NCBI GenBank assembly: GCA_015232565.1
Contig: JADFZK010000001.1
Coordinates: 13,160 to 77,159, forward strand
Length of the DNA: 64,000 nucleotides
From: Candidatus Omnitrophota bacterium
Lineage (GTDB): Bacteria > Omnitrophota > Gorgyraeia > Zapsychrales > Fredricksoniimonadaceae
Direction of reading: 5' to 3'
Positions 32,902 through 48,630 of the stretch are shown here, in pieces (the stretch's first letter is position 1; each line of letters begins with the position of its first letter). Both the position numbers and the translations under genes were made by a program. The notes under the pieces are model-generated. The model worked only from the letters and a program-made list of their open reading frames with translations. It was not told the origin of the DNA and made no database searches.

Positions 32902-32906
32902 TGCGG

Positions 32907-34049
32907 ATGGAGAGTCAAAAGGGTTGTTATCTTTGCGGGCACCGGAGGTTTCGTGTTGTGTTGGATCGTCCGGCTGTTGTGCCTTGGACAAGTTCGGGGG
33001 ATAAAGCCAGGGGACGCCGTCGGTTTCCCTGCATTCTTCGGCAGTGCCTTGATTGCGGACATGTTTACCAACCTGTTTCTTTGTCATTGCGAAGGGAATT
33101 GGCTGCAATTTATTCCTCGGACCGAGCCCAAATGTCTACGACTATGGGCAGGGGCTGTTGGGGCAAGGCGCGGTCGGATGTATTCCTGAAGGATTTTTTT
33201 AGAGTGGTGAACTTCTTGCGTTATGACTCCATTCTTGAGATAGGCTGCGGTGACGGATATCTTTTGCGGGAGTTAAAGAAGATGGGAGGGAGGGGGTTGG
33301 CTGGTTTGGAGCCCTCTTTACCTAGTGATTCTTGCCGAAATGGGATCCGGTTGATAAAAGGGTTTGCGTCTGAAGGGGTTCGGTTACCACGACGTTATGA
33401 GTTTCTATTCTCGGCGTATGTGATGGAGCATGTGGAGAATATTCGGGGTTTTATGAGGTTTTGTCTCGCTAACTTAAAGCCTGATGGAGAGATGTATTTC
33501 ATTGTGCCTAATGCACTCAAGGCGATGAAGGATGGGGATTTGTCTCTGTTTACCCATCAGCATATTCAATATTTTATGCCGTCAACGGTGCGCCGTTTGA
33601 TGGAATCGTACGGGTTTGAGGTGTTGTCATTACGTGAGATTGCTGACGATGTTGAGGTGCTAGGGCGCTGGACAGGCCGTTTGGTGGGTAAGCTTCCAAT
33701 TGCAGGTAAGTTTGGTTACGAGGCCCGGTTGCGCAAGGTAATGAAGAGGGCTTTGCGTGTTTTGCGCCGCCCCCCAGTGATTGTCCACGGTATCAGTAAT
33801 TCGTTAAATAATCTTCTGGGTTGGCAGTCTGGGAGTTTTGACATGGCGCTGGTTGACAATGATCCAACCAAGGAGGGAAAGGTCTTTTTTGGTAAGACAG
33901 CTGTTCCTACGGCGAAGATTTCATTGGCCGGTTATCGGGGAGTGTTGATTATTCCTAATACTTATGCGGCAGCGATCCGCCATGAATATGAAGTTCGCTC
34001 TTTTCAGGGGGTTATTTCGGATTTGATTTTGGAGGATCATGAAGGTTAA
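32907..34049 (+). CDS. Zinc-ribbon plus class I methyltransferase plus C-methyltransferase C-terminal domain protein (sugar C-methyltransferase family, Methyltransf_13/14-like)
   Basis: CYLCGH...CLDCGH zinc ribbon, the SAM motif ILEIGCGDGYLLREL, and a C-terminal domain of about 130 aa. A GTG at 32901 is an alternative start. Confidence 0.8.
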   Translation: MESQKGCYLCGHRRFRVVLDRPAVVPWTSSGDKARGRRRFPCILRQCLDCGHVYQPVSLSLRRELAAIYSSDRAQMSTTMGRGCWGKARSDVFLKDFFRVVNFLRYDSILEIGCGDGYLLRELKKMGGRGLAGLEPSLPSDSCRNGIRLIKGFASEGVRLPRRYEFLFSAYVMEHVENIRGFMRFCLANLKPDGEMYFIVPNALKAMKDGDLSLFTHQHIQYFMPSTVRRLMESYGFEVLSLREIADDVEVLGRWTGRLVGKLPIAGKFGYEARLRKVMKRALRVLRRPPVIVHGISNSLNNLLGWQSGSFDMALVDNDPTKEGKVFFGKTAVPTAKISLAGYRGVLIIPNTYAAAIRHEYEVRSFQGVISDLILEDHEG

Positions 34050-34749
34050 GACTGTCTTATGTCCTCGTTTTTCGGAAGTGTCCCGTAGTTTCTTCAATCG
34101 GGATTGTCAGGTTCATACAGCGTGGACTGATGGCGCCTGTGCGCCGCGTGAGATCTTGAAAGCAGCTGAGGACCTTGGCTTGGACACGTTGGCGTTTACA
34201 GAGCACATTCGTTCCGAGAGCGTTTATTTCAAGGATTTCTTTCGCGAGATTGAAGGCCTCCGTAAAGGGTTAGTAATGAAGGTTTTTATCGGAGTGGAGA
34301 CCAAGGTTATAGATGAGGAGGGACAGTTGGATATTTCTTCGGCAGATTATGCCATGGCGGAAATTGTCCTGGGGAGTGTCCATCGTATTCCGCATAATGG
34401 CGGTTTTTATCATCCTCGTGATCTCGGACTTGAGGTGACGCTTGAAGAGGAATTCCGCTATTTAATGGCCATGTTGCGTGGCGGTCGGGTTGATGTGCTG
34501 GCTCATCCGTTTGGGATGTCACTAAGAATGTTTAATGTTTTCTCGACAGATCATTTAGAAGAGGTTATTCGAACGGCGGCTTTGACTGGCGTTGCTTTTG
34601 AGTTCAATTCCAAGTATGCCAGTCCAGTATTCTTGAAGGAAGCGGTTCGTTTTTGTCGCAAACATGATCCTTTGGTGTCGCTTGGTTCGGATGTTCATAA
34701 GATTGAGGATCTTGGCCGTTGCCGTGGGATTCTGGAAGGGTTGATATGA
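34039..34749 (+). CDS. PHP-domain metal-dependent phosphoesterase
   Basis: CQVHTAWTDG...LAFTEHIRSE...GSVHRIPHNG...LAHPFG, a pattern of metal-binding His/Asp residues. Confidence 0.7.
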   Translation: MKVKTVLCPRFSEVSRSFFNRDCQVHTAWTDGACAPREILKAAEDLGLDTLAFTEHIRSESVYFKDFFREIEGLRKGLVMKVFIGVETKVIDEEGQLDISSADYAMAEIVLGSVHRIPHNGGFYHPRDLGLEVTLEEEFRYLMAMLRGGRVDVLAHPFGMSLRMFNVFSTDHLEEVIRTAALTGVAFEFNSKYASPVFLKEAVRFCRKHDPLVSLGSDVHKIEDLGRCRGILEGLI

Positions 34750-35744
34750 TAAATGTTTTGGTGACTGGGGTTGGGTCTTTGATAGGTCAGGGCCTTTTGC
34801 GTGCGTTGAAGAGTTCAGCGTTATCCTGTTGTATTACCGGTACGGATTATTTTGCCCATGCTGTTGGACTTTACTGGGTCGATCGGGGTTATATATTACC
34901 GGACTTGTTGGCGCCTGGGGTTACCGGCAGGGCATGGTTGGCCGAGATAGTTAGGATCATTGGGGAGAGGCGTATTGATGTTGTTCTTGTTGGGCTGGAT
35001 TTTGAGGTTGCGATCTTTGCGGAGAACAGACGCATTATTGAAGAGCAGACCGGGGCAAAGGTTATTGTTGCTACTTCAGAGGCTGTCGCGATTTGCAAAG
35101 ATAAATATCGCACTGCGCTGTTCTTGCAGGAGAGTGGATTCTTGTTCCCGGATTCGTGTTTGCCGCAGGATATAGAGACTTTCTTGGAGCGTCGTGCATT
35201 TCCGTTGGTGGTCAAACCACGTGCGGGGTTCCGTTCTCGGGATCTATTTGTAGTAAGAGATCGGAAGGAACTGGCTGAGGCAATGTCCCGTTGTCCAGAT
35301 CCCGTTGTTCAGGAGCAGGTTGGTGTTTGTGAGGCAGAATATACGTGCGGTACTGTTTGTCAGGGAGGAGAAAGTCTGAGTGTCATTGCGCTTCGGCGCG
35401 ACCTGAAGGATGGCAATACGATCCGCGCCGTTTTTGATGAACAGTGTTTGGGCCTTCATGAATTTGTTCGGAGGGCCGGATTGGCGCTTAGGTCTGATGG
35501 GCCGTTTAACTTTCAGCTGAGGCTTACAGAGCGTGGGCCGGTGGTTTTTGAGATTAATCCCCGTTTCTCGGGGACGACATATATGAGGACGTTCTTCGGT
35601 GTTAATGAAGTTGAGGTGTTGATCAATAAAGTCCATTTTGGCAAGGATCCGGTACCGGTGGAATGGAGTTCGGGAGTAGCGTTAAGGTATTATGATGACC
35701 AGTTTATCCCGATGGATCAATTTCGAAAGTGGTCGATGACGTGA
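34746..35744 (+). CDS. ATP-grasp domain ligase
   Basis: ATGA overlap with the PHP gene. An N-terminal Rossmann-like region is followed by an ATP-grasp core (FPLVVKPRAGFRSRDLFVV...EQVGV...EYTCG...FEINPRFSGT). Confidence 0.8.
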   Translation: MINVLVTGVGSLIGQGLLRALKSSALSCCITGTDYFAHAVGLYWVDRGYILPDLLAPGVTGRAWLAEIVRIIGERRIDVVLVGLDFEVAIFAENRRIIEEQTGAKVIVATSEAVAICKDKYRTALFLQESGFLFPDSCLPQDIETFLERRAFPLVVKPRAGFRSRDLFVVRDRKELAEAMSRCPDPVVQEQVGVCEAEYTCGTVCQGGESLSVIALRRDLKDGNTIRAVFDEQCLGLHEFVRRAGLALRSDGPFNFQLRLTERGPVVFEINPRFSGTTYMRTFFGVNEVEVLINKVHFGKDPVPVEWSSGVALRYYDDQFIPMDQFRKWSMT

Positions 35745-36610
35745 AAGTGCTAGTAACCGGAGGCAGTGGTTTTATCGGCAGTGCGGTTGTGAACCGCCTT
35801 AAGGCGGAGCATGCAGTGCATGTTCTTTCCTCTCGGCGTAAGAGTGTAGTTATGACACACGAGTGTGATCTTTTATCTGCCGCGTCGGTGAAGTCCTTTG
35901 TCGATCATCTGGCTGGTGACGGATTTGACGCGCTGATTCATTTGGCGGCCATTACTTGTTCGGCTGAGAATCGGCTAAAGATTTCTTTGCTTGATGAGAA
36001 TAACATTATTACGGCTAATGTCATTGAGATCGCACGTGCTCTGCGGCCCAAAATGTTCATTCATGCCTCAAGTATGGCGGTATTTCCGAATTGCAACGGG
36101 ATTTATACAGAGGATAGCTTGATTAACCCGGCCGCCAACGGGGATGGGCTTTACGGGTTGGCAAAGTTTAACGCAGAGGTGATGCTGGACTTCTTTCTTG
36201 CTGCGCAGATGCCGGTAACTCATTTGCGGTTGAGCCAGGTTTATGGTCCCGGAATGGTCCGGGATCGCATCATTCCGTCAATGATGCGTGAATGGCGAGA
36301 GAAAGGGGCGATTACGGTGTACGGAAACGGGGAGCGCGTGACGAATTTCATTCATGTTCGGGATGTGGTTGAAGCGTTTGTGCGAGTCTTGGCCGCTCCA
36401 AAACAAGGGGTGTTCAATATTGCAGCTAGCCGGCATTGGTCTTTCTTTGAATTGGCACAGATGATCATTGGTTCAATGGGAAGTAAAGAGATGAGGATAA
36501 TATTGGAGCCAAAAGGATCGCGAGTTCAGCAGCGGATCGATGCTACGCGTTTTAACGCAACGTATGGTTTCTCGGCGGATTGTGTTGACTTTGCGGGTAT
36601 CGAGGCATGA
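35729..36610 (+). CDS. NAD-dependent epimerase/dehydratase family protein (short form)
   Basis: VLVTGGSGFIGSAV, with Tyr-x3-Lys (YGLAK). GTG start. Confidence 0.8.
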   Translation: MVDDVKVLVTGGSGFIGSAVVNRLKAEHAVHVLSSRRKSVVMTHECDLLSAASVKSFVDHLAGDGFDALIHLAAITCSAENRLKISLLDENNIITANVIEIARALRPKMFIHASSMAVFPNCNGIYTEDSLINPAANGDGLYGLAKFNAEVMLDFFLAAQMPVTHLRLSQVYGPGMVRDRIIPSMMREWREKGAITVYGNGERVTNFIHVRDVVEAFVRVLAAPKQGVFNIAASRHWSFFELAQMIIGSMGSKEMRIILEPKGSRVQQRIDATRFNATYGFSADCVDFAGIEA

Positions 36611-37659
36611 AAAGCACACCGGCAGCTCTCTATGATCGGATCAAGCGCGGTCCTGGGGTGTTCATTATAGGTGAAGCAGGAGTGAATCATAATGGTGACC
36701 TTGGTATGGCTTGCCGATTGATTGATGCGGCGGCAGCGGCAGGATGTGACGCTGTTAAGTTCCAGACATTTAAAACGGAGAGGGTCATTTCTACGCGAGC
36801 CCCAAAGGCCAGGTATCAGAAGGAAGCAACGGGTATCGGCGAGTCGCAGTTTGAGATGGTCAAAAGGCTTGAGTTAGATGCCGCGGCGCATCGTAAGTTG
36901 TTGATCCACTGCCGCAAGCGCGGGATCCTTTTCTTGTCTACGCCCTTCGATGAGGAGAGTGCGGACATGCTACAGGAGTTGGGGGTGCCTCTCTTTAAGA
37001 TACCGTCGGGTGAGATTACTAATATGCCGCTGTTGCGCCATATTTCACTTAAACTTAGGCCGGTCATTCTTTCGACGGGTATGTCGACTCTCGTGGAAGT
37101 TGAAAGTGCGGTGAAGGTGCTGCGCAAGGCGGGTTGTGTGCGGCTGGTCCTGTTGCACTGTGTTACTTCTTATCCATGTCCGATCGAACAGGTGAATCTT
37201 CGGGCCATGACGACATTGGCCAGGGCTTTCAAATGTCCGGTTGGATATTCGGATCATACTCTTGGCCTGGACGCGTCTTTGGCCGCGGTGGCGATGGGGG
37301 CGAGAGTGATCGAGAAGCATTTTACGATGGATATCGGTTTGCCTGGTCCGGATCATCAGGCTTCATTGCCACCGGAAGGGTTGGCTGAACTGGTTGAGCG
37401 TGTTAGGGCTTTGGAGCGGGCTATGGGCGACGGGATTAAACGGGCGGCGACTTGCGAGGTAGAGAATATCATGATCGCACGTAAGAGCGTTGTTGCAGCT
37501 CGGGATATCGCCGTTGGAGAAAAGATTGCTTTGGGGGATGTCGTAATTAAGCGTCCAGGTACCGGGATTGCTCCGGGAGATATCCGAAAGGTTGTCGGCA
37601 GGACGATGTCGCGGGCTCTTGGTCGGGATGAAGTTATTACATGGAAAGACACTCGATGA
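36607..37659 (+). CDS. NeuB family nonulosonic acid synthase (N-acetylneuraminate/legionaminate/pseudaminate synthase) with a C-terminal SAF domain
   Basis: IIGEAGVNHNGDLGMACRLIDAAAAAGCDAVKFQTFK...YSDHTLG. The C-terminal SAF domain reads GDVVIKRPGTG. ATGA overlap. Confidence 0.9.
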   Translation: MKSTPAALYDRIKRGPGVFIIGEAGVNHNGDLGMACRLIDAAAAAGCDAVKFQTFKTERVISTRAPKARYQKEATGIGESQFEMVKRLELDAAAHRKLLIHCRKRGILFLSTPFDEESADMLQELGVPLFKIPSGEITNMPLLRHISLKLRPVILSTGMSTLVEVESAVKVLRKAGCVRLVLLHCVTSYPCPIEQVNLRAMTTLARAFKCPVGYSDHTLGLDASLAAVAMGARVIEKHFTMDIGLPGPDHQASLPPEGLAELVERVRALERAMGDGIKRAATCEVENIMIARKSVVAARDIAVGEKIALGDVVIKRPGTGIAPGDIRKVVGRTMSRALGRDEVITWKDTR

Positions 37660-38831
37660 AAACGCGTAGAATTTGTGTGATCACAGGCTCTCGGGCTGAG
37701 TACGGGCATATGTTGATGTTAATGAAGGCTATTGAGGCTGACCGGGGATTACGGCTTCAGGTTGTGGTCACAGGAATGCATCTTTCTTCGGCTTTTGGGC
37801 ATACATTCCGTGTTATTGAAAAAGACGGGTTTTCTATCGATGCCCGCCTTCCTATTTTGAAGTTCGACAACACGCCGGAGGGCATTTGTCGGTCAATAGG
37901 CTTGGGGACAGCTTTGATCGCTCGGAGTTTGGGGAAGCTTAAGCCCGATATTGTTGTTATTTGTGGTGATCGCTACGAAATGCTGGCCGCGGCCACCGCC
38001 GCTCATGTTCTTGGCATTCCCATTGCTCATTTGCATGGGGGAGAGAATTCGGAGGGGGCGATCGATGAGGCGTTCCGGCATGCGATAACAAAAATGTCCA
38101 GTCTGCATTTTGCTGCTACGGAACCGTATCGCCGGCGGATCATTCAGATGGGTGAGCAGCCGTCGCGGGTTTTTAATTTTGGAGCACCCGGGCAGGATCT
38201 TATCCTTAATACGCCTGTGATGGGGCGGGAGGATTTGGCCAGGGCTTTAGGCTTTGATTTGACGGGTCCAGTTGCTTTGGTCACTTTTCATCCGGTGACG
38301 CTGGAGAAGAATAGCGTTGAAGAACAGGTTAAGGCTGTAACGGTGGCCTTGGTTTCTTCGGGACTGCGCGGTATTATCACGCGCTCGAATGCTGATCAGG
38401 GAGGGGCACGCATCAATGCGCTAATGGAGACATTTTGCCTCCGGCATCCACGCAGATTCCGCCTGTTTTCAAATCTAGGGGCCAAGATATATTTCAATTG
38501 TCTGCGTTATGCCGATCTTTTGGTGGGCAATTCTTCGAGCGGCATTGTGGAGGCTCCGACATTCCGCCTGCCGGTGGTGAATATCGGAGATCGTCAACAG
38601 GCTCGTGTTCGTTCGAGTAATGTAATTGATGTTGCGTGTGAATCTGCGGCCATTAAGAAAGGGATTTCTCAGGCTTTGTCCCCGGCGTTCAAGCGGTCCC
38701 TTAAGGGGATGAGAAATCCTTACGGGTCCGGTTCGGATGGCAAGGTCAGCGAGCGGATCAAGGATGTTCTTAAGAGCGCAGAAATCGGCGGGAAGTTGTT
38801 AAAAAAGAAGTTTTATAACATTAAGTTTTGA
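37656..38831 (+). CDS. NeuC/LegG-type hydrolysing nucleotide-sugar 2-epimerase
   Basis: RICVITGSRAEYG, MHLSSAFGHT, HLHGGE and FHPVT. Confidence 0.9.
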   Translation: MKTRRICVITGSRAEYGHMLMLMKAIEADRGLRLQVVVTGMHLSSAFGHTFRVIEKDGFSIDARLPILKFDNTPEGICRSIGLGTALIARSLGKLKPDIVVICGDRYEMLAAATAAHVLGIPIAHLHGGENSEGAIDEAFRHAITKMSSLHFAATEPYRRRIIQMGEQPSRVFNFGAPGQDLILNTPVMGREDLARALGFDLTGPVALVTFHPVTLEKNSVEEQVKAVTVALVSSGLRGIITRSNADQGGARINALMETFCLRHPRRFRLFSNLGAKIYFNCLRYADLLVGNSSSGIVEAPTFRLPVVNIGDRQQARVRSSNVIDVACESAAIKKGISQALSPAFKRSLKGMRNPYGSGSDGKVSERIKDVLKSAEIGGKLLKKKFYNIKF

Positions 38832-38851
38832 GGTCGGTTGTGGGAGTGAAT

Positions 38852-39802
38852 GTGGCTTGTGAGAAGTTAAGGGTTTTAATTATTGGGCTCGGTTCTATAG
38901 GCCAGCGGCATGCGTGTTTGCTTCAGGGAAACTTTGGCCATCAGCTTTTTGCATTGCGATCCGGTAAGGGGGATATTATTGATCTTCCTGGGGTTACGAT
39001 GTTGGATTCCTGGGAGGGTGTGGATGCGGTGTCTCCACAGGTGGCTCTTGTTACGAATCCGACGGGTTTTCATTTATCGACGGCGGTCAGGTGTGCTGTG
39101 AGGGGAATGCATTTGTTCATTGAGAAGCCGATCGATTGCACCGATCGAGGGCTTGACGATCTTTTGAAGGTTGTCAGGGATAAACATCTTGTGGCCTATG
39201 TAGCGTACCCTCTTCGTTTTCATCCGTTGATACTTCTATTGCGTAAGTTGCTTGAAGGGCGGAAGGTCTTGCATGCCCAAGTGGTTTGCTCTTCGTACTT
39301 GCCGGATTGGCGTCCAGGGCGTGATTCGCACACTTTATATTCCGCCAAGAGAGTGGAAGGCGGTGGGGTTTTGCTTGATCTTTCACATGAGCTTGATTAC
39401 GCTGAATATTTGTTTGGATCGCTTAATTTGCTTAAAGGGCGGATGGGTCGGGTATCGGATGTTACGATCGACGCTGAAGATTATGCGGATTTGGTGTGTG
39501 AATATGAACGAGCGGCTGTTAATATTCATCTGAACTATTTCAGTCGGCAGGCTAAGCGTGATATTGGGATTGACCTGAAGAATGGCCACATACAAGCGGA
39601 TTTGCTTAGTGGAAATATTCGGCAGGTTATCGATGGTAAAGTGGAAGAATACATGGTTTCGTTTGGTCGGGATGATATGTTTTTGGAGCAGTTGAGACAT
39701 TTCTTTGGTGCTATTAACGGTGCTCCCTTGATCAATGATCTCGCTTCGGCGGCTAGATTATTTCGGAAGCTCTTGGCGTTCAGAGAGGAGATTCTAGTAT
39801 GA
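38852..39802 (+). CDS. Gfo/Idh/MocA family oxidoreductase
   Basis: Rossmann motif LRVLIIGLGSIGQRHA. The start is ambiguous: TTG at 38828 or one of the in-frame GTGs at 38840, 38846 or 38852. GTG 38852 is used here because GGAG (38843-38846) lies 5 nt upstream. Confidence 0.75.
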   Translation: MACEKLRVLIIGLGSIGQRHACLLQGNFGHQLFALRSGKGDIIDLPGVTMLDSWEGVDAVSPQVALVTNPTGFHLSTAVRCAVRGMHLFIEKPIDCTDRGLDDLLKVVRDKHLVAYVAYPLRFHPLILLLRKLLEGRKVLHAQVVCSSYLPDWRPGRDSHTLYSAKRVEGGGVLLDLSHELDYAEYLFGSLNLLKGRMGRVSDVTIDAEDYADLVCEYERAAVNIHLNYFSRQAKRDIGIDLKNGHIQADLLSGNIRQVIDGKVEEYMVSFGRDDMFLEQLRHFFGAINGAPLINDLASAARLFRKLLAFREEILV

Positions 39803-40509
39803 ATATTCTGATGGTGGTATGCGCTCGGGGAGGTTCCAAGGGTGTGAAGAATAAGAATATACGGCTATTGTGCGGCAAGCCGTTGATCGCGTACTCGCTG
39901 GAGCATTGTAAGGCCTGGGGTCGCGCCGCGCATATTATTGTTTCAACAGATTCATCTGAGATCGCCGAGATAGCGCTTCGGTGGGGCGCGGAAGTCCCAT
40001 TTATGCGACCACCGGAGTTGGCTACGGACACTGCACCTAAGGTTCCGGTGATTCGGCATGCGCTTCTGTCCGCGGAGGCATATTACGGCAGTCAGTTTGA
40101 TGTGGTGGTTGATATTGACGCCTCAGCTCCCTTACGCACTGTCAGGGATATTGAAGGGGCTTTTCAGGCTTTTTGTTTCGGTGAAGTTGATACAGTCTTT
40201 AGTGTTGTTCCAGCTCATCGCAATCCGTATTTTAACATGGTTGAGGAAGGTCTGGATGGCTATTGCCAACTGGTTAAGCCCTTGCCAGGGGTGATAACAT
40301 CACGCCAGATTGCGCCTAAGGTTTTTGATCTTAACGCGTCGATCTATTTTTACAAGTCGGATTATCTCAGGGATTTGGCGGTGTTATCTCCCATTTCGCG
40401 AAAATCTAAGGTTTATGTGATGGATCCAATCTGCGCGCGTGACATTGACTCGGAAGAGGATTTTAATTACGTGGAGTATCTTGTACAGCGAGGATTGGTA
40501 ACCTTATGA
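39799..40509 (+). CDS. Acylneuraminate cytidylyltransferase family (CMP-nonulosonic acid synthetase, NeuA/LegF/PseF-like)
   Basis: MVVCARGGSKGVKNKNIRLLCGKPLIAYSLEH. ATGA overlap. Confidence 0.9.
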   Translation: MNILMVVCARGGSKGVKNKNIRLLCGKPLIAYSLEHCKAWGRAAHIIVSTDSSEIAEIALRWGAEVPFMRPPELATDTAPKVPVIRHALLSAEAYYGSQFDVVVDIDASAPLRTVRDIEGAFQAFCFGEVDTVFSVVPAHRNPYFNMVEEGLDGYCQLVKPLPGVITSRQIAPKVFDLNASIYFYKSDYLRDLAVLSPISRKSKVYVMDPICARDIDSEEDFNYVEYLVQRGLVTL

Positions 40510-41288
40510 ACAAAATGCTGGATTGCTCAGGTAAAGTGGTGGTTGTTACTGGTGGCGCAGGACGTATAGGGAAGCATTTGGCTCAGGCCTTTGCTTTGGC
40601 AGGGGCTGAAGTTGTGGTAGCTGATATCGATGAGAAAGCGGCTGCGGCGGTAAGCGATTTATTGCAACAACAGGGGCACAGGGCTATGTCCCTGCTATTG
40701 GATATTGCGGATGAATCTTCGATTGTTCAGTGCATAGCCTTACTTAAAGCGCGCTTTCAGGCTATCGATGTTTGGGTGAATAATGCCTATCCACGTACTG
40801 CTGACTGGGGAGTCAAACTTGAGGATATCCCTGCGGAGTCATGGCGTAAGAATGTTGACATGCATTTGATTGGTTACTGTTTGTGCTGTCAGAAAGTTGC
40901 CGAGCATATGAAGGTTTTGGGCACGGGCAGTATTATCAATATTTCGTCAATTTATGGTATCATTGCGCCTGACTTCTCTGTATATGAAGGTACTGCGATG
41001 ACCTCGGCGGCGCCCTATGCTGCGATAAAGGGGGGCATTGTGCAGTTTACCCGTTATTTGGCATCGTATTACGGGCCGTCGGGAGTCAGGGTAAATAGCG
41101 TCTCTCCCGGTGGTGTGTTTGACAATCAGCCCGGTTCGTTCGTGAAGGCGTACATTTCTAAGACGCCGTTGCGGCGCATGGCAACAGTTGGAGATGTGGC
41201 GGGGGCGGTCCTTTTTCTGGGCTCGGAAGCTTCGGCGTATATTACCGGGCATAATCTTGTTGTGGATGGCGGGTATAGTATTCAATAA
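40506..41288 (+). CDS. SDR family oxidoreductase
   Basis: VVVVTGGAGRIGKH, NNA and a YAAIK segment (Y-x3-K). Confidence 0.85.
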   Translation: MNKMLDCSGKVVVVTGGAGRIGKHLAQAFALAGAEVVVADIDEKAAAAVSDLLQQQGHRAMSLLLDIADESSIVQCIALLKARFQAIDVWVNNAYPRTADWGVKLEDIPAESWRKNVDMHLIGYCLCCQKVAEHMKVLGTGSIINISSIYGIIAPDFSVYEGTAMTSAAPYAAIKGGIVQFTRYLASYYGPSGVRVNSVSPGGVFDNQPGSFVKAYISKTPLRRMATVGDVAGAVLFLGSEASAYITGHNLVVDGGYSIQ

Positions 41289-41372
41289 ATTTTATGTAAA
41301 GATTTTGAATGGGGCCTGTTCGTTTTAAGGTTGAAACATGGAAACTCGTTTGGCGATCTATATGGGACAAGT

Positions 41373-42137
41373 ATGAGAATTATTCCGCGCCTGGATATCA
41401 AGAACAATACGGTTGTGAAGGGCATTCATCTTGAAGGGCTGCGCGTTGTAGGCGATCCGGCGGAGTTGTCAAGGACCTATTATGCACAGGGTGCTGATGA
41501 GATCCTGTATATGGATGCCGTGGCGAGCTTATATGAACGCAACAGCCTTAAAGATATTATTCGTGTCGTAAGTGAGGATGTGTTTATTCCGTTGACTGTT
41601 GGCGGTGGTATTCGCAGTATCGACGATATCAGAGGGATCTTACGCGCCGGGGCGGACAAGGTTGCCATTAATACGGCGGCTATTCGTCGTCCCGGGTTTA
41701 TACGCGAGGCTTCGCAGATATTCGGGTCGCAGTGTATAGCGGTTTCGATAGAGGCCAAGAGAATAGGCGATGGTGTTTGGGAAGCTTATGTTGATACTGG
41801 ACGGGAGACCACAGGAATTGATGTGGTTGAGTGGGCTCAGGAAGTGGTGCGTTTGGGGGCTGGAGAGATTATTGTAACGTCCATTGACCGCGAAGGCATG
41901 AAGAATGGTTTTGAGATCGATCTAGTAGAACGGATCATGAATCTTGTTTCTGTTCCTGTGGTGGCCTGTGGCGGGTGCGGGCGGCCGGAACACGTGGAAG
42001 CACTATTGAATCGCGCTTCGGTAAGCGGTGTTGCTTGTGCGTCGATTTTTCACTATCAATTAAGTGATGTCACGGCTTTAAAGATGCATTTGGGTAAGGC
42101 AGGTATTCCGGTGAGAGCAGTCGGGAAGAATTTATGA
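41373..42137 (+). CDS. HisF-like cyclase subunit (WbuZ/PseA-partner type, glycan acetamidino formation)
   Basis: MRIIPRLDIKNNTVVKG...GGGIRS, a (beta/alpha)8 HisF pattern. It lies next to a HisH-like gene and an amidotransferase. Confidence 0.85.
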   Translation: MRIIPRLDIKNNTVVKGIHLEGLRVVGDPAELSRTYYAQGADEILYMDAVASLYERNSLKDIIRVVSEDVFIPLTVGGGIRSIDDIRGILRAGADKVAINTAAIRRPGFIREASQIFGSQCIAVSIEAKRIGDGVWEAYVDTGRETTGIDVVEWAQEVVRLGAGEIIVTSIDREGMKNGFEIDLVERIMNLVSVPVVACGGCGRPEHVEALLNRASVSGVACASIFHYQLSDVTALKMHLGKAGIPVRAVGKNL

Positions 42138-42775
42138 AAGTTGTAATTATTGATTATGGGTTATGTAATTTGCTGAGTGTTCACAACGCGCTGAGGTCGT
42201 TTGGGGTTGATTCTACCGTAACGCCTGATCCGGAGAAACTTAAAGGCGCGGATGCCCTCATTTTGCCTGGAGTGGGTGCTTTTGAGGATGGGATGAAGGG
42301 TTTAAGGGACCGTGGTTTTATAAGGCCTATTGAGGAGTACGTGGCAAGCGGCCGTCCTCTTTTAGGCATATGCCTGGGTATGCAACTTTTGTTTGATAAA
42401 AGCTTTGAGTTCGGCGAATTTGAAGGGCTGCATCTTATTCCCGGGGAGGTTGTTCCGGTAAAGCCTGCAGGCTCAACAGGAGTTCCCTGTAAGATCCCGC
42501 ATGTTGGCTGGAATGCATTGCTGAAATCTACGCGAGACTGGAGGGGTACCATTTTGGGCGATATCCCAGCGGGCGCGGAAATGTACTTCGTGCATTCGTA
42601 TCAAGGTGTCCCTGAATATAAGGAGCATGTTCTGGCAGAAACGGATTACTGTGGGAACCGATTTTGTTCTGTGGTTGCTTGTGGCAATGTGTTTGGGTGT
42701 CAGTTTCATCCTGAGAAAAGCGCCGCAGATGGCTTAACAATTCTAAGAAGTTTTCTTTCAATAAAAGGAGTGTGA
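42134..42775 (+). CDS. HisH-like class I glutamine amidotransferase subunit
   Basis: KVVIIDYGLCNLLSV, GICLGMQLL (catalytic Cys) and a terminal HPEKS motif. Confidence 0.85.
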   Translation: MKVVIIDYGLCNLLSVHNALRSFGVDSTVTPDPEKLKGADALILPGVGAFEDGMKGLRDRGFIRPIEEYVASGRPLLGICLGMQLLFDKSFEFGEFEGLHLIPGEVVPVKPAGSTGVPCKIPHVGWNALLKSTRDWRGTILGDIPAGAEMYFVHSYQGVPEYKEHVLAETDYCGNRFCSVVACGNVFGCQFHPEKSAADGLTILRSFLSIKGV

Positions 42776-42778
42776 TTT

Positions 42779-44038
42779 ATGCCTGATTTAGAGGCGCTAT
42801 TCGGACTTCCCCGGGAGGTTAAGTTTTGCAGGATTTGCAATATTACCAATCAGCGTCCGAACTCAGTTAATGAGTATGAGCATGTGCGCTCGTCGGTCAA
42901 GAGTACGATTCAGTTTAATGAAGATGGCGTTTGCGCGGGCTGTATTAACAAGGAGCGCCAGCATTTAGCGATTGACTGGAAAAAGAGAGAAGAGGAGCTG
43001 TGGGCGCTTTGTGATCATCATCGCAAGAGTGATGGCAATTATGATTGCATTGTGCCGGGAAGCGGTGGTAAAGACAGTATATATGCTTCTTGGCTTCTTA
43101 AGTATAAGTTCAAGATGCATCCATTGACGGTCACCTGGTCGCCTCATTTGTACACTGATGTAGGCTGGAGGAATTTCCAGTCGTGGATCCATAAAGGTGG
43201 ATTTGACAATTTCTTGTTCACTCCCAATGGTAAGTCGCATCGCTTGCTGACTCGTTTGGCAGTCCAGAATCTTCTTCATCCATTTCAACCATTCATTCTG
43301 GGTCAGAAAACATTTGTTACTAAGATGTGCGCGCGAATGGATATTTCTTTGGCGTTCTACGGGGAAATGCCTGGAGAGTACGGGACTACAGGCATTCTGT
43401 CCGCTAGTGGAGAGGAGAAGAAATTCTCAGGTTACGCTGGTTCAGGCTTTAGCACGGATATGCTGGGTGGCAGGGATGTGATGGATCTCTATCTTGGCGG
43501 TGTCTCGGTTAAGGATATCGTGGAGAAACACGGTGTGGCCTTGGTTGATTTGAAAGCTTATCTTCCCCTTGAAGCTCAGATCGTTCGTGAGAAAAAGATT
43601 GATATTTATTTTACGGGCTATTTTGTAAAGTGGGATCCGCAGGAATGTTATTATTTCTCGGTTGAAAAGACCGGATTTGAAGCAAATCCCGTTCGTACTG
43701 AGGGGACTTATTCCAAATACAATAGCCTTGATGACAGGATTGATGGGTATTTCTACTATACTTCTTGGATCAAATTCGGCATGGGCAGAGCCATGCAGGA
43801 TTCAGCGCAGGAGATTCGCAATAAGAAGATCACAACAGATGAAGGCAGGGCCTTGATAAAGAAGTTTGACGGGGAATTCCCGTTGCGGTATTACAAGGAA
43901 TTTCTGGAGTATATCGGGATGACGGATAAGGAATTTCGTGATATATGTGATTCGTTCCGTTCGTCTCATTTGTGGGCTAAAGTTAATGGTGAGTGGCGGT
44001 TGCGGCATACGGCCAATAATGATGGGGTTGATGATTAA
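42779..44038 (+). CDS. N-acetyl sugar amidotransferase (PP-loop ATP pyrophosphatase, WbuX/PseA-like)
   Basis: N-terminal zinc ribbon CRICN...CAGC and the PP-loop CIVPGSGGKDSIY. 419 aa. Confidence 0.85.
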   Translation: MPDLEALFGLPREVKFCRICNITNQRPNSVNEYEHVRSSVKSTIQFNEDGVCAGCINKERQHLAIDWKKREEELWALCDHHRKSDGNYDCIVPGSGGKDSIYASWLLKYKFKMHPLTVTWSPHLYTDVGWRNFQSWIHKGGFDNFLFTPNGKSHRLLTRLAVQNLLHPFQPFILGQKTFVTKMCARMDISLAFYGEMPGEYGTTGILSASGEEKKFSGYAGSGFSTDMLGGRDVMDLYLGGVSVKDIVEKHGVALVDLKAYLPLEAQIVREKKIDIYFTGYFVKWDPQECYYFSVEKTGFEANPVRTEGTYSKYNSLDDRIDGYFYYTSWIKFGMGRAMQDSAQEIRNKKITTDEGRALIKKFDGEFPLRYYKEFLEYIGMTDKEFRDICDSFRSSHLWAKVNGEWRLRHTANNDGVDD

Positions 44039-44144: not shown

Positions 44145-45377
44145 ATGCATAAGAACATAGATAAATGCAGAATCTGCGGAAATACGAACCTGGTTGAGGT
44201 CGTTGATCTTGGGATGATGATGTTAACGGGCGTTTTCCCCAGATCTGTTGACACTAATATCACGTCTGGTCCCATAAGTTTGGTCAAGTGTTCCGGAGGG
44301 GAGGGAGTTTGTGGATTGCTACAATTGAGGCAATCGTATGACCTGGGTGATCTTTATGGTATGAATTATGGGTATCGTTCAGGTCTTAATAAGAGCATGG
44401 TCGAGCATTTGCATGGGAAAGTTAGAAAGATAGAGAGCTTGGTTAACCTGAAGGCCAATGATTTGATCGTCGATATCGGCAGTAATGACGGCACAACGTT
44501 GGCGGCTTATCCCGAGGAAGGTTTGGACCTGGTGGGTATTGATCCCACAGGTTTGAAGTTTAAGAATTACTATAGACCGCATATTAAGCTTATCCCGGAT
44601 TTCTTCTCGCGAGAGATCCTAATGAAATATTGCGGAAAGAAAAAAGCTAAAGTGGTTACATCATTCTCGATGTTTTATGATTTGGAAGCCCCTTTATTAT
44701 TTATGAAGGAAGTGCGAGATGTCCTGGATGATGAAGGCATTTGGGTGTTTGAGCAAAGCTATATGCCTACAATGCTCAAGACGAATTCATTTGATACTAT
44801 TTGTCAGGAACATTTGGAATATTATGCTGTTAAGCAGATCAAGTGGATGGCTGACAAGGCAGATTTAAAGATCATTGATGTTGAATTTAATAATGTTAAT
44901 GGCGGTAGTTTCTCGGTAATGGTGGCAAAAAGAAGTTCGCATTATCCGCAGGCGCTTGATTTAGAGGAGTTGTTGAACGAAGAAATTGAAAGGGGATTTG
45001 ATACGCTGGTTCCTTACCGTGAATTTGCTAAAGTGGCGGATAGGGTAAGAAACGAGCTTTTGGCGTTTATTGATCGGGTTCACTCCGAGGGGAAGACCAT
45101 TTGCGGATTGGGTGCATCTACCAAGGGAAATGTTTTGTTACAGTATTGCGGCATCACCGCTGATCGTTTGCCGTGCATTGGTGAGGTCAATGCTGAGAAG
45201 TTTGGGGCGCATACGCCGGGGACATTTATTCCGATCATTTCCGAGAGTGATCTTTTGGCGATGAATCCGGATTATTTGCTTGTTCTTCCGTGGCATTTCA
45301 GGAGTTTTTTCACTAAGATACCAAAGTTTAGGAAAGTTAAGTTGGTCTTCCCATTGCCACAACTAGAGGTGGTGTAA
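44145..45377 (+). CDS. Zinc-ribbon plus class I methyltransferase plus C-methyltransferase C-terminal domain protein (second paralog)
   Basis: CRICGN...C zinc ribbon, SAM motif IVDIGSNDGT, and a C-terminal domain. It has the same architecture as the 32907-34049 gene. Confidence 0.8.
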   Translation: MHKNIDKCRICGNTNLVEVVDLGMMMLTGVFPRSVDTNITSGPISLVKCSGGEGVCGLLQLRQSYDLGDLYGMNYGYRSGLNKSMVEHLHGKVRKIESLVNLKANDLIVDIGSNDGTTLAAYPEEGLDLVGIDPTGLKFKNYYRPHIKLIPDFFSREILMKYCGKKKAKVVTSFSMFYDLEAPLLFMKEVRDVLDDEGIWVFEQSYMPTMLKTNSFDTICQEHLEYYAVKQIKWMADKADLKIIDVEFNNVNGGSFSVMVAKRSSHYPQALDLEELLNEEIERGFDTLVPYREFAKVADRVRNELLAFIDRVHSEGKTICGLGASTKGNVLLQYCGITADRLPCIGEVNAEKFGAHTPGTFIPIISESDLLAMNPDYLLVLPWHFRSFFTKIPKFRKVKLVFPLPQLEVV

Positions 45378-45382
45378 GTTTA

Positions 45383-45850
45383 GTGCTTTCTAATGGGGGG
45401 GGAATGCATTCAGTTATTCCAGATAGGCTGTATAGACAGATTTTAAGGGTGATGCCAATTGCCTGCGTTGACTTACTTGTATTTGATCAGGTGGGTCAAA
45501 TATTACTGGTTAGAAGAAACAATGAGCCGGTAAAAGGGCAGTGGTGGTTTCCGGGTGGCAGGGTATGGTTTGGAGAAATGCGGGAGGCCGCCGCTAGGAG
45601 AAAACTTAAAGAAGAGTGTGGGATTGACGCTAAATTAGTAAAAGAGTTCGGGACATATGATGTCATTCTTCCTGTGAAGGGAAGTTTTGTGCATGCTGTT
45701 TCAACGGTGTACCGTCTTTCGGTAGCGCAGGATTCGCGCGTGATTCTTGATCAGCAGAGTAGTGAGTTTCGCTGGCGTTCGGTAGAGGATTGGCTGAAAG
45801 ATCCTATTGATGACTTTGTAAGAGGTATTTTGAAACAGGAGATTCACTGA
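45383..45850 (+). CDS. NUDIX hydrolase
   Basis: NUDIX box GQWWFPGGRVWFGEMREAAARRKLKEECGI. The start is uncertain (GTG 45383 or ATG 45404). Confidence 0.8.
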   Translation: MLSNGGGMHSVIPDRLYRQILRVMPIACVDLLVFDQVGQILLVRRNNEPVKGQWWFPGGRVWFGEMREAAARRKLKEECGIDAKLVKEFGTYDVILPVKGSFVHAVSTVYRLSVAQDSRVILDQQSSEFRWRSVEDWLKDPIDDFVRGILKQEIH

Positions 45851-45863
45851 AGTTAGGGCAGGA

Positions 45864-46667
45864 TTGAATGATATCTTAACGTATGTTGCTTTTGGGAGCG
45901 AGGGTATGTCATTGAAGAAGATAAAGAAGATTGTATTAGTGGCTCATGATAATGAAGGGTCAGCTAGATTGTTTAATAGGGTTACGTCGAATTTTCCTGA
46001 TGTCGAGTTTCTACTGGTCATTGGAGAGTCTTTGTATTATAAGAAATCATTCTTGGCTTCTGTAATTAAGCTTTTGCGAGAGGCCAGCTGGCTTTTTGTA
46101 TTTGTTCGGTTTATTGAGCTCGTAAAGTACAAGATTATCGGTAAGACCCTGAAAAAAGAATGTTTGGATAAAGGCATTCGTTATATTTGTACCAGGGACA
46201 TTAATGCGCCGGAGGCGCTTGAAAGTATCCGGGCATATGCACCGGATCTTCTTATTTCGTTGTTCACTATGCAGATCTACAAGGCATCGGTTATTGGTAT
46301 CCCTCGGTACGGGGCGATTACGAGTCATCCGTCGATTTTGCCGAAATACAGGGGATTGGAAGTGTTTTTTTGGGTTTTGGCCAATGACGAGAAGGAGACT
46401 GGTGTCAGTGTTTTCTTTTTGAATGAAAAGATAGATGCCGGAAAGGTGTTTGAACAGGAGGTTGTTCCGATAACCGCAGGTACAACGGTCGCTTCTCTTT
46501 ATAAGACCATAACCGATATCGGCGGAGATTTATTGGTAAAAGCTGTGATAGATATCGATAACGACGAGGTTCACTATATTGGTTCCGAGGGAGAGGGGTC
46601 TTATTATCCTATGCCTGATAGAGCTTCGGTACGGCGTTTTCTTAGGCTCGGGCGTAAATTCTTCTAA
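45864..46667 (+). CDS. Formyltransferase (Fmt/PurN-type N-terminal catalytic domain)
   Basis: ITSHPSILPKYRGLEVFFWVLANDEKETGVSVFFLNEKIDAGKV matches the HxSLLPxxxG and SLYxxD-like motifs. An alternative start at 45906 gives MSLKKIKKIVLV. Confidence 0.8.
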   Translation: MNDILTYVAFGSEGMSLKKIKKIVLVAHDNEGSARLFNRVTSNFPDVEFLLVIGESLYYKKSFLASVIKLLREASWLFVFVRFIELVKYKIIGKTLKKECLDKGIRYICTRDINAPEALESIRAYAPDLLISLFTMQIYKASVIGIPRYGAITSHPSILPKYRGLEVFFWVLANDEKETGVSVFFLNEKIDAGKVFEQEVVPITAGTTVASLYKTITDIGGDLLVKAVIDIDNDEVHYIGSEGEGSYYPMPDRASVRRFLRLGRKFF

Positions 46668-46697
46668 GGATTTGAACTCAATGACGAGGGGCTTTTT

Positions 46698-47816
46698 ATG
46701 GCTGATGTGCTGGTTTATAAAGAATTTATTCCCTGGGCAAAGCCTAGTTACTGGGGAAAAGAGAAAGAGTACGCTTTAGAGGCGATTTCTTCTTCGTGGA
46801 TATCTGGTGGGCCCTTTGTGGACCGGCTGGAAAAAGACATTGCCAGATATTATGGTTGTGGTCGGGCTTTGACTTCATCCAATGGTACGGCGGCACTTCA
46901 CATGGCGTTTCTTTCGCTTGGGCTCGGACCGGGTGACGAAATCATTGTCCCCGGATTTGGTTTTATGGCGGCAGCTAATGTGGGTTCCTTGATGGGGATA
47001 AAGCCTGTTTTTGCCGAGGTCGATCCGGACACATGGTGTATGCGAGCGGAAGATGTCGAGCCTTGCGTGACCGAGCGTACTAAGGCGATCGTGCCGATAC
47101 ATAATTATGGCAATGTGTGTCCGATGGATACGATCATGGCCTTTGCTTCTCGAAAGGGTATTGCCGTTGTAGAAGATGCGGCAGAATCTTTCGCTTCCCG
47201 TTATGACGGCAAGCTGTCCGGCACTTTTGGGACTATTGGTACGTTCAGTTTTCACGCGACAAAGACAATTACCACGGGTGAAGGAGGCATGGCTATTACG
47301 GATCGCCAGGATCTTGGGGATCTGATGGCGCTATATCGGAGTCATGGGTTGCTGAGGAAACGTCATTACTGGCATGAAATTACGGGACATAATTTCAGGC
47401 TAACCAATATGCAGGCGGCACTCGGGTGCGCGCAGATGGAGAGACTGGAAGAGATCATTCGTGAACGCAAGAGGATCCATCTGGCGTATGCGGGCCATCT
47501 TGGTTCTTTTGACGGAGTGTCAATGCAGGTTTTTACGCCTAAGGTTGATCCTGTGCTTTGGGCCACAGCGGTGAAGATTGATTCTGTGGCATATCCTCAG
47601 GGCAGAGATATTGTACTCCAGCAGATGCTTGCGGCAAATATTGAAACCCGGCCCGGTTTTTATACGGCTTTTGGTATGAAGCATCTTCATCAAAGCGGGC
47701 GACTGCCCGTGTGCGAAGCGTTAAGCGGCCAGATCATCAGTTTGCCGACTTTTCCGACATTGAGTGATGAACAGATCGATTTTATTTGCACAAAGTTGAA
47801 AGGTCTCCGCAGATAA
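46698..47816 (+). CDS. DegT/DnrJ/EryC1/StrS family aminotransferase (second)
   Basis: SSNGTAALHMAF, SFHATKTITTGEGGM. Confidence 0.9.
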   Translation: MADVLVYKEFIPWAKPSYWGKEKEYALEAISSSWISGGPFVDRLEKDIARYYGCGRALTSSNGTAALHMAFLSLGLGPGDEIIVPGFGFMAAANVGSLMGIKPVFAEVDPDTWCMRAEDVEPCVTERTKAIVPIHNYGNVCPMDTIMAFASRKGIAVVEDAAESFASRYDGKLSGTFGTIGTFSFHATKTITTGEGGMAITDRQDLGDLMALYRSHGLLRKRHYWHEITGHNFRLTNMQAALGCAQMERLEEIIRERKRIHLAYAGHLGSFDGVSMQVFTPKVDPVLWATAVKIDSVAYPQGRDIVLQQMLAANIETRPGFYTAFGMKHLHQSGRLPVCEALSGQIISLPTFPTLSDEQIDFICTKLKGLRR

Positions 47817-48625
47817 TGATAAAGGTAAGGAATAATGACGATTTGTTATTGGCATATATGGGTATGGCACCGCTTGCGCTTGCTTTTGAAAGATATTTGG
47901 AGTGTCAGATATACCGGGATCTTGAGCTGGCTGATCCGGTGCTTGATATCGGTTGTGGTGACGGCTTGTTCGCGCATATTCTTTTTGATGGGCAGGTTGA
48001 TACCGGCATAGACTTGAATCCGCATGAATTGGAACGGGCGCGTGTGTTGGGCGGGTATAAAGAGCTGATTACTTGCAGTGCGGGTGCGATCCCGAAACCG
48101 GATGGATCATACCGGACGATTATTTCTAACAGCGTGCTGGAACACATACCTGATCTTTCTTCTGTGCTTAAAGAGGCGCATCGTCTTCTTGTGCCGGGTG
48201 GAAGATTTTATGTGACTGTGCCTGCTCCCGAGTTCGAGGAGTATACTATCGGGAATATTGTTCTTACCGGGATTGGGTTGCGAGGGGTGGCGGCTGGGTA
48301 CAAAGCCTTCTGTAGCCGTGTGCTTTGGCGACAGATTCACTATAAGTCGGTTGAGGGCTGGAAGGCTCTTGCGATGGCGCATGGTTTTGAAGTGCTGGAT
48401 GGATTTGCCTATGATTCTCGGCAGGTTTGTCTTTTGAATGATTTTCTGTATCCCTTTAGCATTCTGGATGTGATCAAGAAGCGGTTGTTGAACCGCTGGA
48501 CACTAATGCCGACTTTTCGACGTTTCTGGATGTATCCATTTTATCTTTTTGCAAAGAATTTCTTAAAAGGCAATGTCCGGGCAGATTCTGGAGGTTTGGT
48601 TTTTCTTTCATTAAGGAAGGGGTAG
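47816..48625 (+). CDS. Class I SAM-dependent methyltransferase
   Basis: VLDIGCGDGLF, and ISNSVLEHIPD. TAATG overlap with the upstream gene. Confidence 0.8.
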   Translation: MIKVRNNDDLLLAYMGMAPLALAFERYLECQIYRDLELADPVLDIGCGDGLFAHILFDGQVDTGIDLNPHELERARVLGGYKELITCSAGAIPKPDGSYRTIISNSVLEHIPDLSSVLKEAHRLLVPGGRFYVTVPAPEFEEYTIGNIVLTGIGLRGVAAGYKAFCSRVLWRQIHYKSVEGWKALAMAHGFEVLDGFAYDSRQVCLLNDFLYPFSILDVIKKRLLNRWTLMPTFRRFWMYPFYLFAKNFLKGNVRADSGGLVFLSLRKG

Positions 48626-48630
48626 TGCAT

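Follow-up and report, generated by a model that had tools for sequence, protein, structure and literature searches.

In Campylobacter jejuni the nonulosonic acid (NulO) legionaminic acid (Leg) is made by a GDP-linked route comprising LegB, LegC, LegH, LegG, LegI, LegF, PtmE, PtmA and PtmF, with PtmG for the acetimidoyl group (PMC5378307). Of the enzymes that modify such sialic-acid-like sugars in bacteria, very few have been identified (PMC5378307). Amide substituents have precedents in Leg5Ac7NMeGlu of Clostridium botulinum (PMC2674064), sfmABCDE of Shewanella (PMC3765264) and Pse5Am7Gra of T. forsythia; in the first two the decoration combines amide and methyl. Here we analyse a stretch of 64,000 nucleotides from a metagenome-assembled genome (MAG) of Candidatus Omnitrophota (contig JADFZK010000001.1, positions 13,160 to 77,159), called the window below, and within it a Leg locus that is rich in genes for modifying enzymes. 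A first-pass annotation had proposed that these enzymes together decorate a single, possibly new NulO.

This idea of dense tailoring is half right: the locus probably makes at least two different sugars. We lean, if only slightly, towards reading the window as one long surface-glycan operon with three separable units. Unit A matches, as far as its sequences tell, the GDP-type Leg core of the Campylobacter-type route with an acetamidino modification. Unit B is likely a rare NulO-linked tailoring set acting on Leg. For Unit C the best reading is a pathway of its own, whose product would be a GDP-linked 3-C-methyl-4-formamido-4,6-dideoxyhexose with an extra methyl group, delivered on a lipid carrier.

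From about 15.6 kb to the end of the window the genes form a continuous plus-strand array with a strong positive GC skew. All enzymes listed in the first-pass annotation are present, as confirmed by open reading frame (ORF) and Pfam/NCBIfam domain calls, and their genes are intact, closely packed plus-strand ORFs. They had been described as interleaved with the NulO genes. This holds only for the first methyltransferase (MT1), the PHP phosphoesterase, the ATP-grasp ligase, a short-chain dehydrogenase (SDR), a GFO/IDH/MocA oxidoreductase and a PtmA-like SDR, while the genes from the second methyltransferase (C-MT) through the third (MT3) stand in one block downstream of the NulO genes. A scan of 32-51.5 kb for promoters and terminators gave counts equal to the shuffle expectation, so these signals mark no unit boundaries.

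The genes of Unit A are:
29676..30671, + strand: LegB-type NAD-dependent 4,6-dehydratase (TIGR04180, 469 bits, just below the cutoff of 475)
30678..31856, + strand: LegC aminotransferase (TIGR04181, 515 bits, cutoff 420)
31843..32901, + strand: PtmE-like protein with CBS and sugar-1-phosphate nucleotidyltransferase parts (CBS and NTP_transferase domains)
36607..37659, + strand: NeuB/LegI nonulosonate synthase (TIGR03569, 462 bits, above cutoff)
37641..38831, + strand: NeuC/LegG hydrolysing 2-epimerase (TIGR03568, 448 bits, above cutoff)
38828..39802, + strand: GFO/IDH/MocA oxidoreductase, accessory (domain calls)
39799..40509, + strand: CMP-nonulosonate synthetase (CTP_transf_3, 68 bits)
40506..41288, + strand: PtmA-like SDR, accessory (NF006619, 264 bits; FlagModPtmA, 191 bits, below cutoff)
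41331..44038, + strand: acetamidino trio of a HisF/WbuZ-like protein, a HisH-like protein and the N-acetyl sugar amidotransferase WbuX

The assignment of Unit A is made because curated models match LegB, LegC, NeuB, NeuC and WbuX at or near their cutoffs. In the trio, WbuX scores 309 bits (cutoff 203), HisH 203 (cutoff 105) and WbuZ 275, slightly under its cutoff of 300. The PtmE-like gene would point to GDP-linked precursors, with the role of PtmE as given in PMC5378307. Its product would feed LegB, followed by LegC, NeuC/LegG, NeuB/LegI and the CMP-transferase, giving CMP-legionaminic acid, while WbuX, HisH and HisF would turn an N-acetyl into an N-acetimidoyl group. The CMP-nonulosonate synthetase reaches 131 bits with the PseF model, under the cutoff of 205.7, and is 35% identical to its counterpart in a sister locus, L001. 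LegB is 83% identical to the copy in L001, and the GFO/IDH/MocA oxidoreductase gene is not in that locus. No LegH/PglD-type N-acetyltransferase was found in the window by tblastn with the PglD-like proteins of L001 and of a further related locus, L018, although one could be encoded elsewhere. The sole hexapeptide protein (63341-63898) was considered as LegH and rejected, as its top models are of O-acetyltransferase type.

Unit B lies between the PtmE-like gene and NeuB:
32901..34049, + strand: MT1, divergent enzyme with the fold of nucleoside diphosphate (NDP)-sugar C-methyltransferases (Methyltransf_23; hhalign; AlphaFold2 (AF2) model)
34039..34749, + strand: PHP-domain phosphoesterase (PF02811, 53 bits)
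34719..35744, + strand: ATP-grasp carboxylate-amine ligase (NF009402, 300 bits, cutoff 218)
35729..36610, + strand: extended SDR of nucleotide-sugar epimerase/reductase type (PF01370, 144 bits)

MT1 starts at 32901, and the ATG at 32907 that had been taken as its start is the third codon. Sequence searches of the PDB gave no relative of the PHP protein and only generic matches for the ATP-grasp ligase and the SDR. The MT1 subfamily is rare: a word-indexed search returned two close relatives, and 1.84 billion cluster representatives, searched exhaustively with a profile, yielded about 35 matches above 190 bits and 88 at E <= 1e-30. In every readable neighbourhood (five other loci) MT1 stands beside Unit B partners and NulO genes. 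The gene order is PHP-MT1-NeuB-SDR-ATP-grasp in L018, PHP-ATP-grasp-SDR-MT1-CMP-transferase in L020, NeuB-PHP-ATP-grasp-SDR-MT1 in L023, PtmE-MT1-PHP in L021 and LegB-MT1 in L022. PHP and MT1 are thus found together in L018, L020, L021 and L023, and ATP-grasp homologues (28-43% identity) adjoin MT1 in L018, L020 and L023. Further, protein P0261 is an SDR-MT1 fusion whose N-terminal half is 36% identical to the SDR of the window, and in P0370 NeuB is joined to a domain resembling MT1 (27% identity, E 1e-23).

These observations support the earlier proposal for the 5' half: the genes for MT1, PHP, ATP-grasp and SDR are embedded in the Leg genes. Because they recur together only in NulO loci, and because of the SDR-MT1 and MT1-like-NeuB fusions, a non-standard Leg, possibly C-methylated and amide-linked and perhaps C-branched, is still plausible as the product of Unit B.

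In the sister loci L001/L008 the gene order is that of the window, except that PtmE and NeuB are separated by a PglD-type acetyltransferase, and it is this slot of the PglD-type/LegH enzyme that Unit B occupies. The identity between the window and L001 is a mosaic, with 65-83% for LegB-PtmE, 68-77% from C-MT to the glycosyltransferase GT2, and 35-55% for NeuB, NeuC, the CMP-transferase and the amidino genes, against 60-83% in the flanks. The central segment has therefore apparently been swapped by recombination together with Unit B, and the late Leg enzymes seem to vary in step with Unit B.

A few additional enzymes were seen near relatives of Unit B. L018 and L020 also contain B12-binding radical S-adenosylmethionine (SAM) enzymes and an ABC exporter, joined in L020 by a class III aminotransferase and an FkbM methyltransferase, which suggests even richer NulO tailoring in these loci. 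Two distant matches of the MT1 profile, P0306 and P0375, are fused to an aminoglycoside 3-N-acetyltransferase-like domain, that is, to another amine-acylating enzyme paired with the MT1 methyltransferase fold.

The two methyltransferases MT1 and C-MT had been described as paralogous zinc-ribbon C-methyltransferases. In BLASTP they are 20% identical (E 3e-5), and neither a zinc domain nor a C-terminal domain is recognised in MT1 by Pfam/NCBIfam. When the two families are aligned with hhalign, the match extends over 345 columns, running from the first CxxC as far as the C-terminal domain, with 99.5% probability (E 3e-22, 18% identity), and in the joint alignment four Cys, one His and the SAM motif are invariant. 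The AF2 model of MT1 (pLDDT 82) has full-length matches only to KijD1, TcaB9 and MtmC (Foldseek TM-score 0.7-0.76, E about 1e-19), the next matches being generic methyltransferases at 0.38. MT1 is accordingly read as a Cys4 zinc ribbon, a SAM domain and a C-terminal nucleotide-sugar domain. The shared architecture thus stands, by both hhalign and the model. A recent duplication is ruled out by the 18-20% identity, and MT1 and C-MT are, judged from these alignments, ancient homologues.

The substrates, the order of steps and the products we infer from what can be read off directly, namely gene identities, homologies, synteny and fusions. In Unit B the ATP-grasp ligase would couple a carboxylic or amino acid to the C4 amine, the later N7 of Leg, in place of the acetyl group added by LegH, and the PHP enzyme possibly strips phosphate from the acyl group or from a phosphorylated acyl donor. 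MT1 and the SDR would methylate the carbon next to the keto group of a sugar nucleotide. The evident candidate is the LegB product GDP-4-keto-6-deoxy-GlcNAc, because it is the sole NDP-4-keto sugar in the Leg route and belongs to the substrate class of the MT1 fold. Tentatively, and with a modest chance of being right, we propose that MT1 and the SDR C-methylate this GDP-4-keto Leg intermediate, or the nascent keto acid made by NeuB, and that ATP-grasp and PHP add a non-acetyl acyl group at N7, giving a carbon-branched nonulosonic acid. To our knowledge no carbon-branched class of sialic-acid-like sugar has been described, and literature searches on nonulosonic acid with C-methyltransferase found no carbon-branched NulO.

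It is also conceivable, again with a modest probability, that Unit B spares the sugar skeleton and makes an acyl or aminoacyl group that bears a methyl and is attached to N7, like that of Leg5Ac7NMeGlu, with MT1 as an N- or O-methyltransferase of the side chain bound to the nucleotide sugar. An N-methyl-glutamyl amide of Leg is documented in C. botulinum (PMC2674064), and a NulO-linked flagellin modification of Shewanella needs a pair of methyltransferase and ATP-grasp (PMC3765264); all solved members of the MT1 fold, however, are C3-methyltransferases of NDP-4-keto sugars. The active site can be read both ways. H177 and H221 of MT1 align with H181 and H225 of TcaB9, so that both His mutated by the TcaB9 depositors are kept, while Gln (Q220) and Thr (T218) replace E224 and Y222 of TcaB9, in favour of a side-chain enzyme. 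Fusion to an SDR is easier to reconcile with redox-coupled chemistry at a keto carbon than with N-methylation of a side chain.

The block downstream of the Leg genes, Unit C, consists of the following, with a flippase gene after it:
44145..45377, + strand: C-MT, TylC3/TcaB9-type NDP-hexose C-methyltransferase (Methyltransf_13, 23 and 14; PF08421, PF13489, PF08484)
45383..45850, + strand: NUDIX hydrolase of GDP-mannose mannosyl hydrolase type, optional member (PDB Gmm 50 bits, next 34)
45864..46667, + strand: Fmt, sugar N-formyltransferase of about 250 amino acids (Formyl_trans_N)
46698..47816, + strand: DegT2, GDP-perosamine-synthase-like aminotransferase (PDB 3bn1 and 3dr7, perosamine synthetase, 257 bits)
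47786..48625, + strand: MT3, class I SAM methyltransferase, O- or N-methyl (domain call)
48625..49356, + strand: GT2, polyprenyl-phosphate sugar synthase type (PDB Dol-P-Man synthase 94 bits, ArnC 60, GtrB 56)
49346..51076, + strand: U576, polytopic membrane protein (hydropathy: about 10-12 transmembrane helices and a C-terminal soluble part)
51129..52646, + strand: Wzx-type flippase (Polysacc_synt, 44.5 bits; 60% identical to L001)

To define the cassette we fetched neighbourhoods from C-MT and Fmt anchors and mapped the window proteins onto them. The conserved core is C-MT, Fmt, DegT and MT3, usually accompanied by GT2 and a large polytopic protein and sometimes by NUDIX. It occurs in about eight bacterial lineages: the carriers are Omnitrophota, Burkholderiales, Gemmatimonadota, Margulisiibacteriota, Planctomycetota, Rhizobiales and other Alphaproteobacteria, with a fragment in Methylococcus, and several more copies lie on unassigned metagenome contigs. 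Eleven loci could be scored clearly; L015 (only HisH/HisF nearby) is ambiguous, and the length of L011 and L013 does not suffice for a judgement. Five of the eleven (L012/L019, L016, L026, L027, L028) show no NulO gene within 10 kb or up to the contig end.

The decisive case for an autonomous cassette is L026. Its order is membrane protein, Gmd, C-MT, Fmt, DegT, methyltransferase, GT2, LPG_synthase_TM protein and ManC, and this island is flanked by unrelated housekeeping genes (an IclR regulator, a transporter and the UvrD helicase). A Gmd or Gmd-like gene stands directly beside the cassette in L004, L026 and L007, with ManC also in L004 and L026. The Gmd of L004 scores 574 bits with the curated gmd model, those of L026 and L012/L019 are 81% and 63% identical to it, and that of L007 scores 379 bits. 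Since the C-MT clade adjoins Gmd, a GDP-sugar substrate is implied; an in silico proposal for the virenose of Coxiella has a TylCIII-type enzyme act on GDP-4-keto-6-deoxy-mannose (PMC3539893).

The individual enzymes agree with a GDP-sugar route. Over its full length C-MT matches MtmC (160 bits), KijD1 (141) and TcaB9 (133) in the PDB; it is 57-74% identical to cassette copies in other phyla and belongs to a highly conserved, environmental clade with at least 8000 matches. An exact-protein look-up with the window C-MT gave no record. In the NCBI call Fmt has 253 amino acids, implying a start at 45906, and by this numbering N100, H141 and D177 are invariant; its best sugar-acting PDB match is WbkC, a GDP-perosamine N-formyltransferase, followed by ArnA at 53 bits. 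DegT2 scores lower with ArnB (179 bits) and PseC/PglE-type enzymes (124-136). The NUDIX protein, 56 bits with NF011963 and below its cutoff, is found also in L006, L007, L010, L011, L013, L015 and L027 and is not in the cassette of L001 or L026. MT3 is 41-70% identical in the cassette copies recovered by tblastn.

GT2 is one of the best-conserved members (64-77% identity in L001, L004, L006, L010 and L012, 37-44% in the most distant copies). The seven best matches in the PDB are without exception Dol-P-Man synthase, ArnC or GtrB, and its top NCBIfam match is ArnC at 67 bits, far under the cutoff. Such GT2 enzymes take NDP-hexoses, not CMP-NulOs. The following protein, U576, is a candidate lipid-linked-sugar transferase, where the GT-C assignment is topological and the membership in Unit C positional; a single-sequence AF2 model was unusable (pLDDT 41). 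A large polytopic protein lies in or beside most other cassette copies, and those proteins form unrelated sequence groups. LPG_synthase_TM proteins lie 3' of GT2 in L004, L019 and L026, and a PMT_2 (GT-C) protein is next to the cassette in L027. For the membrane proteins of L001 and L004 that are analogous to U576, Pfam (E 0.1) and NCBIfam found nothing.

We take Unit C as a separate pathway because of the autonomous loci, the Gmd and ManC neighbours and the nearest solved relatives, which are GDP-sugar enzymes. It would start from a GDP-4-keto-6-deoxyhexose, derived from GDP-mannose in relatives with Gmd and ManC, that the TylC3-type enzyme C-methylates. Transamination at C4 by the perosamine-synthase-like DegT2, N-formylation and O- or N-methylation by the class I methyltransferase would follow. 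The DPM1/ArnC-like GT2 would then load the sugar onto polyprenyl phosphate, and the adjacent membrane protein would attach it outside the cytoplasm. Unit C would in this scheme not act on the NulO. The first-pass annotation had assigned this 3' half to the NulO and had itself said that kinship of the methyltransferases with WbdD/TylC3-type enzymes acting on unrelated sugars, or a split of the locus into two independent sugar pathways, would refute this. On these terms the proposal is refuted for the 3' half: C-MT is of TylC3/TcaB9 type, and the cassette, which in five of the eleven loci stands without NulO genes, is read as a separate GDP-linked C-methyl deoxysugar pathway. Synteny, which had been suggested as a check, divides the locus: MT1, PHP, ATP-grasp and SDR go with NulO genes in related loci, whereas C-MT, Fmt, DegT and MT3 also occur on their own.

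Another formyltransferase was noted in L006, from a soil metagenome. At 2922-6004 of this locus a second, different enzyme (273 amino acids) lies directly beside LegB- and LegC-like genes, and it may be a true N-formyltransferase of Leg or of a bacillosamine-type amine.

Several observations weigh against the division into three units as drawn here. In Unit B, the SDR of L018 is not an orthologue of the window SDR, and L018 carries a PglD-type acetyltransferase and Unit B together, so Unit B need not replace LegH. The alignment behind the MT1 model contained sequences of the C-MT family, a possible bias towards the C-MT fold. In Unit C, the remaining six of the eleven scored loci (the window, L001, L004, L006, L007 and L010) adjoin NulO genes, which is above chance and allows a functional link. 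The 64-kb window, part of a longer MAG contig, contains no Gmd or ManC, and the GDP-mannose origin is thus carried over from relatives. (GalE at 25821 was tried as Gmd and rejected, with 422 bits for the GalE model against 29 for the gmd model.) The resemblance of Fmt to WbkC is weak (58 bits), and no flippase gene (GtrA/ArnEF) was recognised beside GT2 in the window. Finally, U576 has no Pfam (E 0.1) or NCBIfam match and no detectable homology to GT-C, and hhalign finds no homology between U576 and the L001-type group, nor between the L001-type and L004-type groups.

The adjacency to NulO genes would be accounted for if cassette C here shared a precursor with the Leg route, that is, if it used the LegB product GDP-4-keto-6-deoxy-GlcNAc and made a C-methylated, 4-formamido hexose of bacillosamine type, still exported through GT2 and the membrane protein. 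We consider this rather unlikely. Both 4-keto intermediates are GDP-linked (PMC5378307), and Gmd is lacking in the window, L001/L008, L006 and L010, with LegB adjacent in the first three. However, the cassette (57-66% identity) directly follows a true Gmd in L004, L026 and L012/L019, and its nearest relatives act on a mannose-configured substrate. In the vicinity of L016, L027 and L028 both LegB and Gmd are missing, so that absence within 10 kb counts as weak evidence.

That all tailoring enzymes, including C-MT, Fmt, DegT2 and MT3, act on one C-methylated, N-formylated and amidated Leg is very improbable: the genes are co-directional and closely packed in a single array, a formyl group could in principle cap N7 with LegH not in the window, and cassette C adjoins NulO genes in the six loci named above, but five cassette loci have no nearby NulO gene, L004 and L026 have their own Gmd and ManC, L001 has a complete LegB/C/H/G/I/F set plus the cassette, DegT2 is perosamine-synthase-like and not LegC-like, and the usual polyprenyl-phosphate-type GT2 would not take a CMP-NulO.

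The glycan locus contains further genes outside these units. Between GalE (25821-26810) and LegB, at 26918-29648, lie an HTH_24 regulator, a YhcG/DUF1016 PDDEXK nuclease and a papain-like peptidase C1. In L001 the two SDR genes abut without this three-gene stretch, which looks like an insertion into the glycan operon. Upstream, a second lipid-carrier sugar system (17925-23114) comprises a GtrA-like transmembrane domain fused to a methyltransferase (17925-18959), a full-length PgfS/ArnC-like GT2 (21101-22093; PgfS model 216 bits, below cutoff) and a radical SAM/SPASM protein (22008-23114). A methylenetetrahydrofolate reductase inside the glycan locus (24943-25824; 293.1 bits, cutoff 293.7) may supply one-carbon units to the SAM methyltransferases or be tied to the folate-dependent formyltransferase.

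Downstream, at 58639-63898, there are a methyltransferase, a HisC-like aminotransferase (237 bits, below cutoff), a KdsB-type cytidylyltransferase (238 bits, cutoff 193), two GFO/IDH/MocA oxidoreductases and the hexapeptide protein of O-acetyltransferase type; this may be a further sugar pathway, to a modified Kdo-like acid. Five large ORFs (513-764 amino acids), at 15634-17928, 19579-21120, 23164-24891 and 54669-58575, have no Pfam match. U646 (56635-58575) has a weak match to the surface-carbohydrate family TIGR04326 (67 bits against a cutoff of 250), and for U691 neither Pfam (E 0.1) nor NCBIfam gave anything.

MT1, PHP, ATP-grasp and SDR provide a small gene signature for an uncharacterised Leg modification, tied to NulO synthesis by fusions, and its chemistry is open to in vitro work with available Leg intermediates. 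The cassette of C-MT, Fmt, perosamine-synthase-like aminotransferase, methyltransferase and GT2 is found in many phyla, and from it one would predict a branched, N-formylated deoxysugar, similar to kansosamine, on a lipid carrier. Rhizobiales bacterium AFS040727 (L012/L019), whose record has no MAG label, carries the cassette and could permit direct chemical confirmation. In general a long glycan operon should not be annotated as a single pathway.

Compared with known systems, Unit A resembles the GDP-linked Leg route of C. jejuni (PMC5378307) in LegB, LegC, the PtmE-like protein, NeuC/LegG, NeuB/LegI, the cytidylyltransferase, the PtmA-like SDR and the WbuX/PtmG-type amidotransferase, here with HisH/HisF partners. 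In contrast to C. jejuni, the window lacks the LegH/PglD type and has MT1, PHP, ATP-grasp and SDR in that position. Like the amide-substituted systems of Leg and pseudaminic acid, the locus combines a NulO core with a ligase and a methyltransferase that would give non-acetyl N-acyl groups; unlike Leg5Ac7NMeGlu, Pse5Am7Gra and sfmABCDE, Unit B adds a PHP phosphoesterase and an enzyme of C-methyltransferase fold.

C-MT has all three Pfam domains of TylC3, TcaB9, KijD1 and MtmC and aligns with them end to end, and MT1 shares the fold and the Cys4 site and, of the TcaB9 active-site residues, two His. Both are far from the C-methyltransferases of dTDP-sugar antibiotics, C-MT at 130-160 bits and MT1 at 30-50 bits.

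Unit C is like the GDP-N-formylperosamine pathway in that DegT2 is nearest to perosamine synthase, Fmt to WbkC and NUDIX to Gmm, which belongs to clusters of the E. coli O157 type, and in that Gmd, and ManC in two loci, flanks the cassette in relatives. It differs by the extra C-methyltransferase and the second methyltransferase, and by having no Gmd in the window. The predicted sugar is a 3-C-methyl, methylated analogue of N-formyl-perosamine, and it resembles the N-acyl-kansosamine of M. kansasii. The latter is named in PMC4403928. With the Arn and Gtr systems Unit C shares an aminotransferase, a formyltransferase and an ArnC/DPM1-like GT2, behind which comes a large polytopic membrane protein. 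Unlike in Arn, the donor would be a 6-deoxyhexose in place of L-Ara4N, the C-terminal part of ArnC is missing from GT2, and U576 is not demonstrably GT-C; no deacetylase-family domain, as in an ArnD-type deformylase, was seen among the scanned window ORFs of at least 150 amino acids. Literature searches (3-C-methyl/formamido/perosamine, kansosamine, nonulosonic with C-methyltransferase or ATP-grasp) found neither cassette described. Both are new combinations of well-known enzyme families and not new kinds of system.

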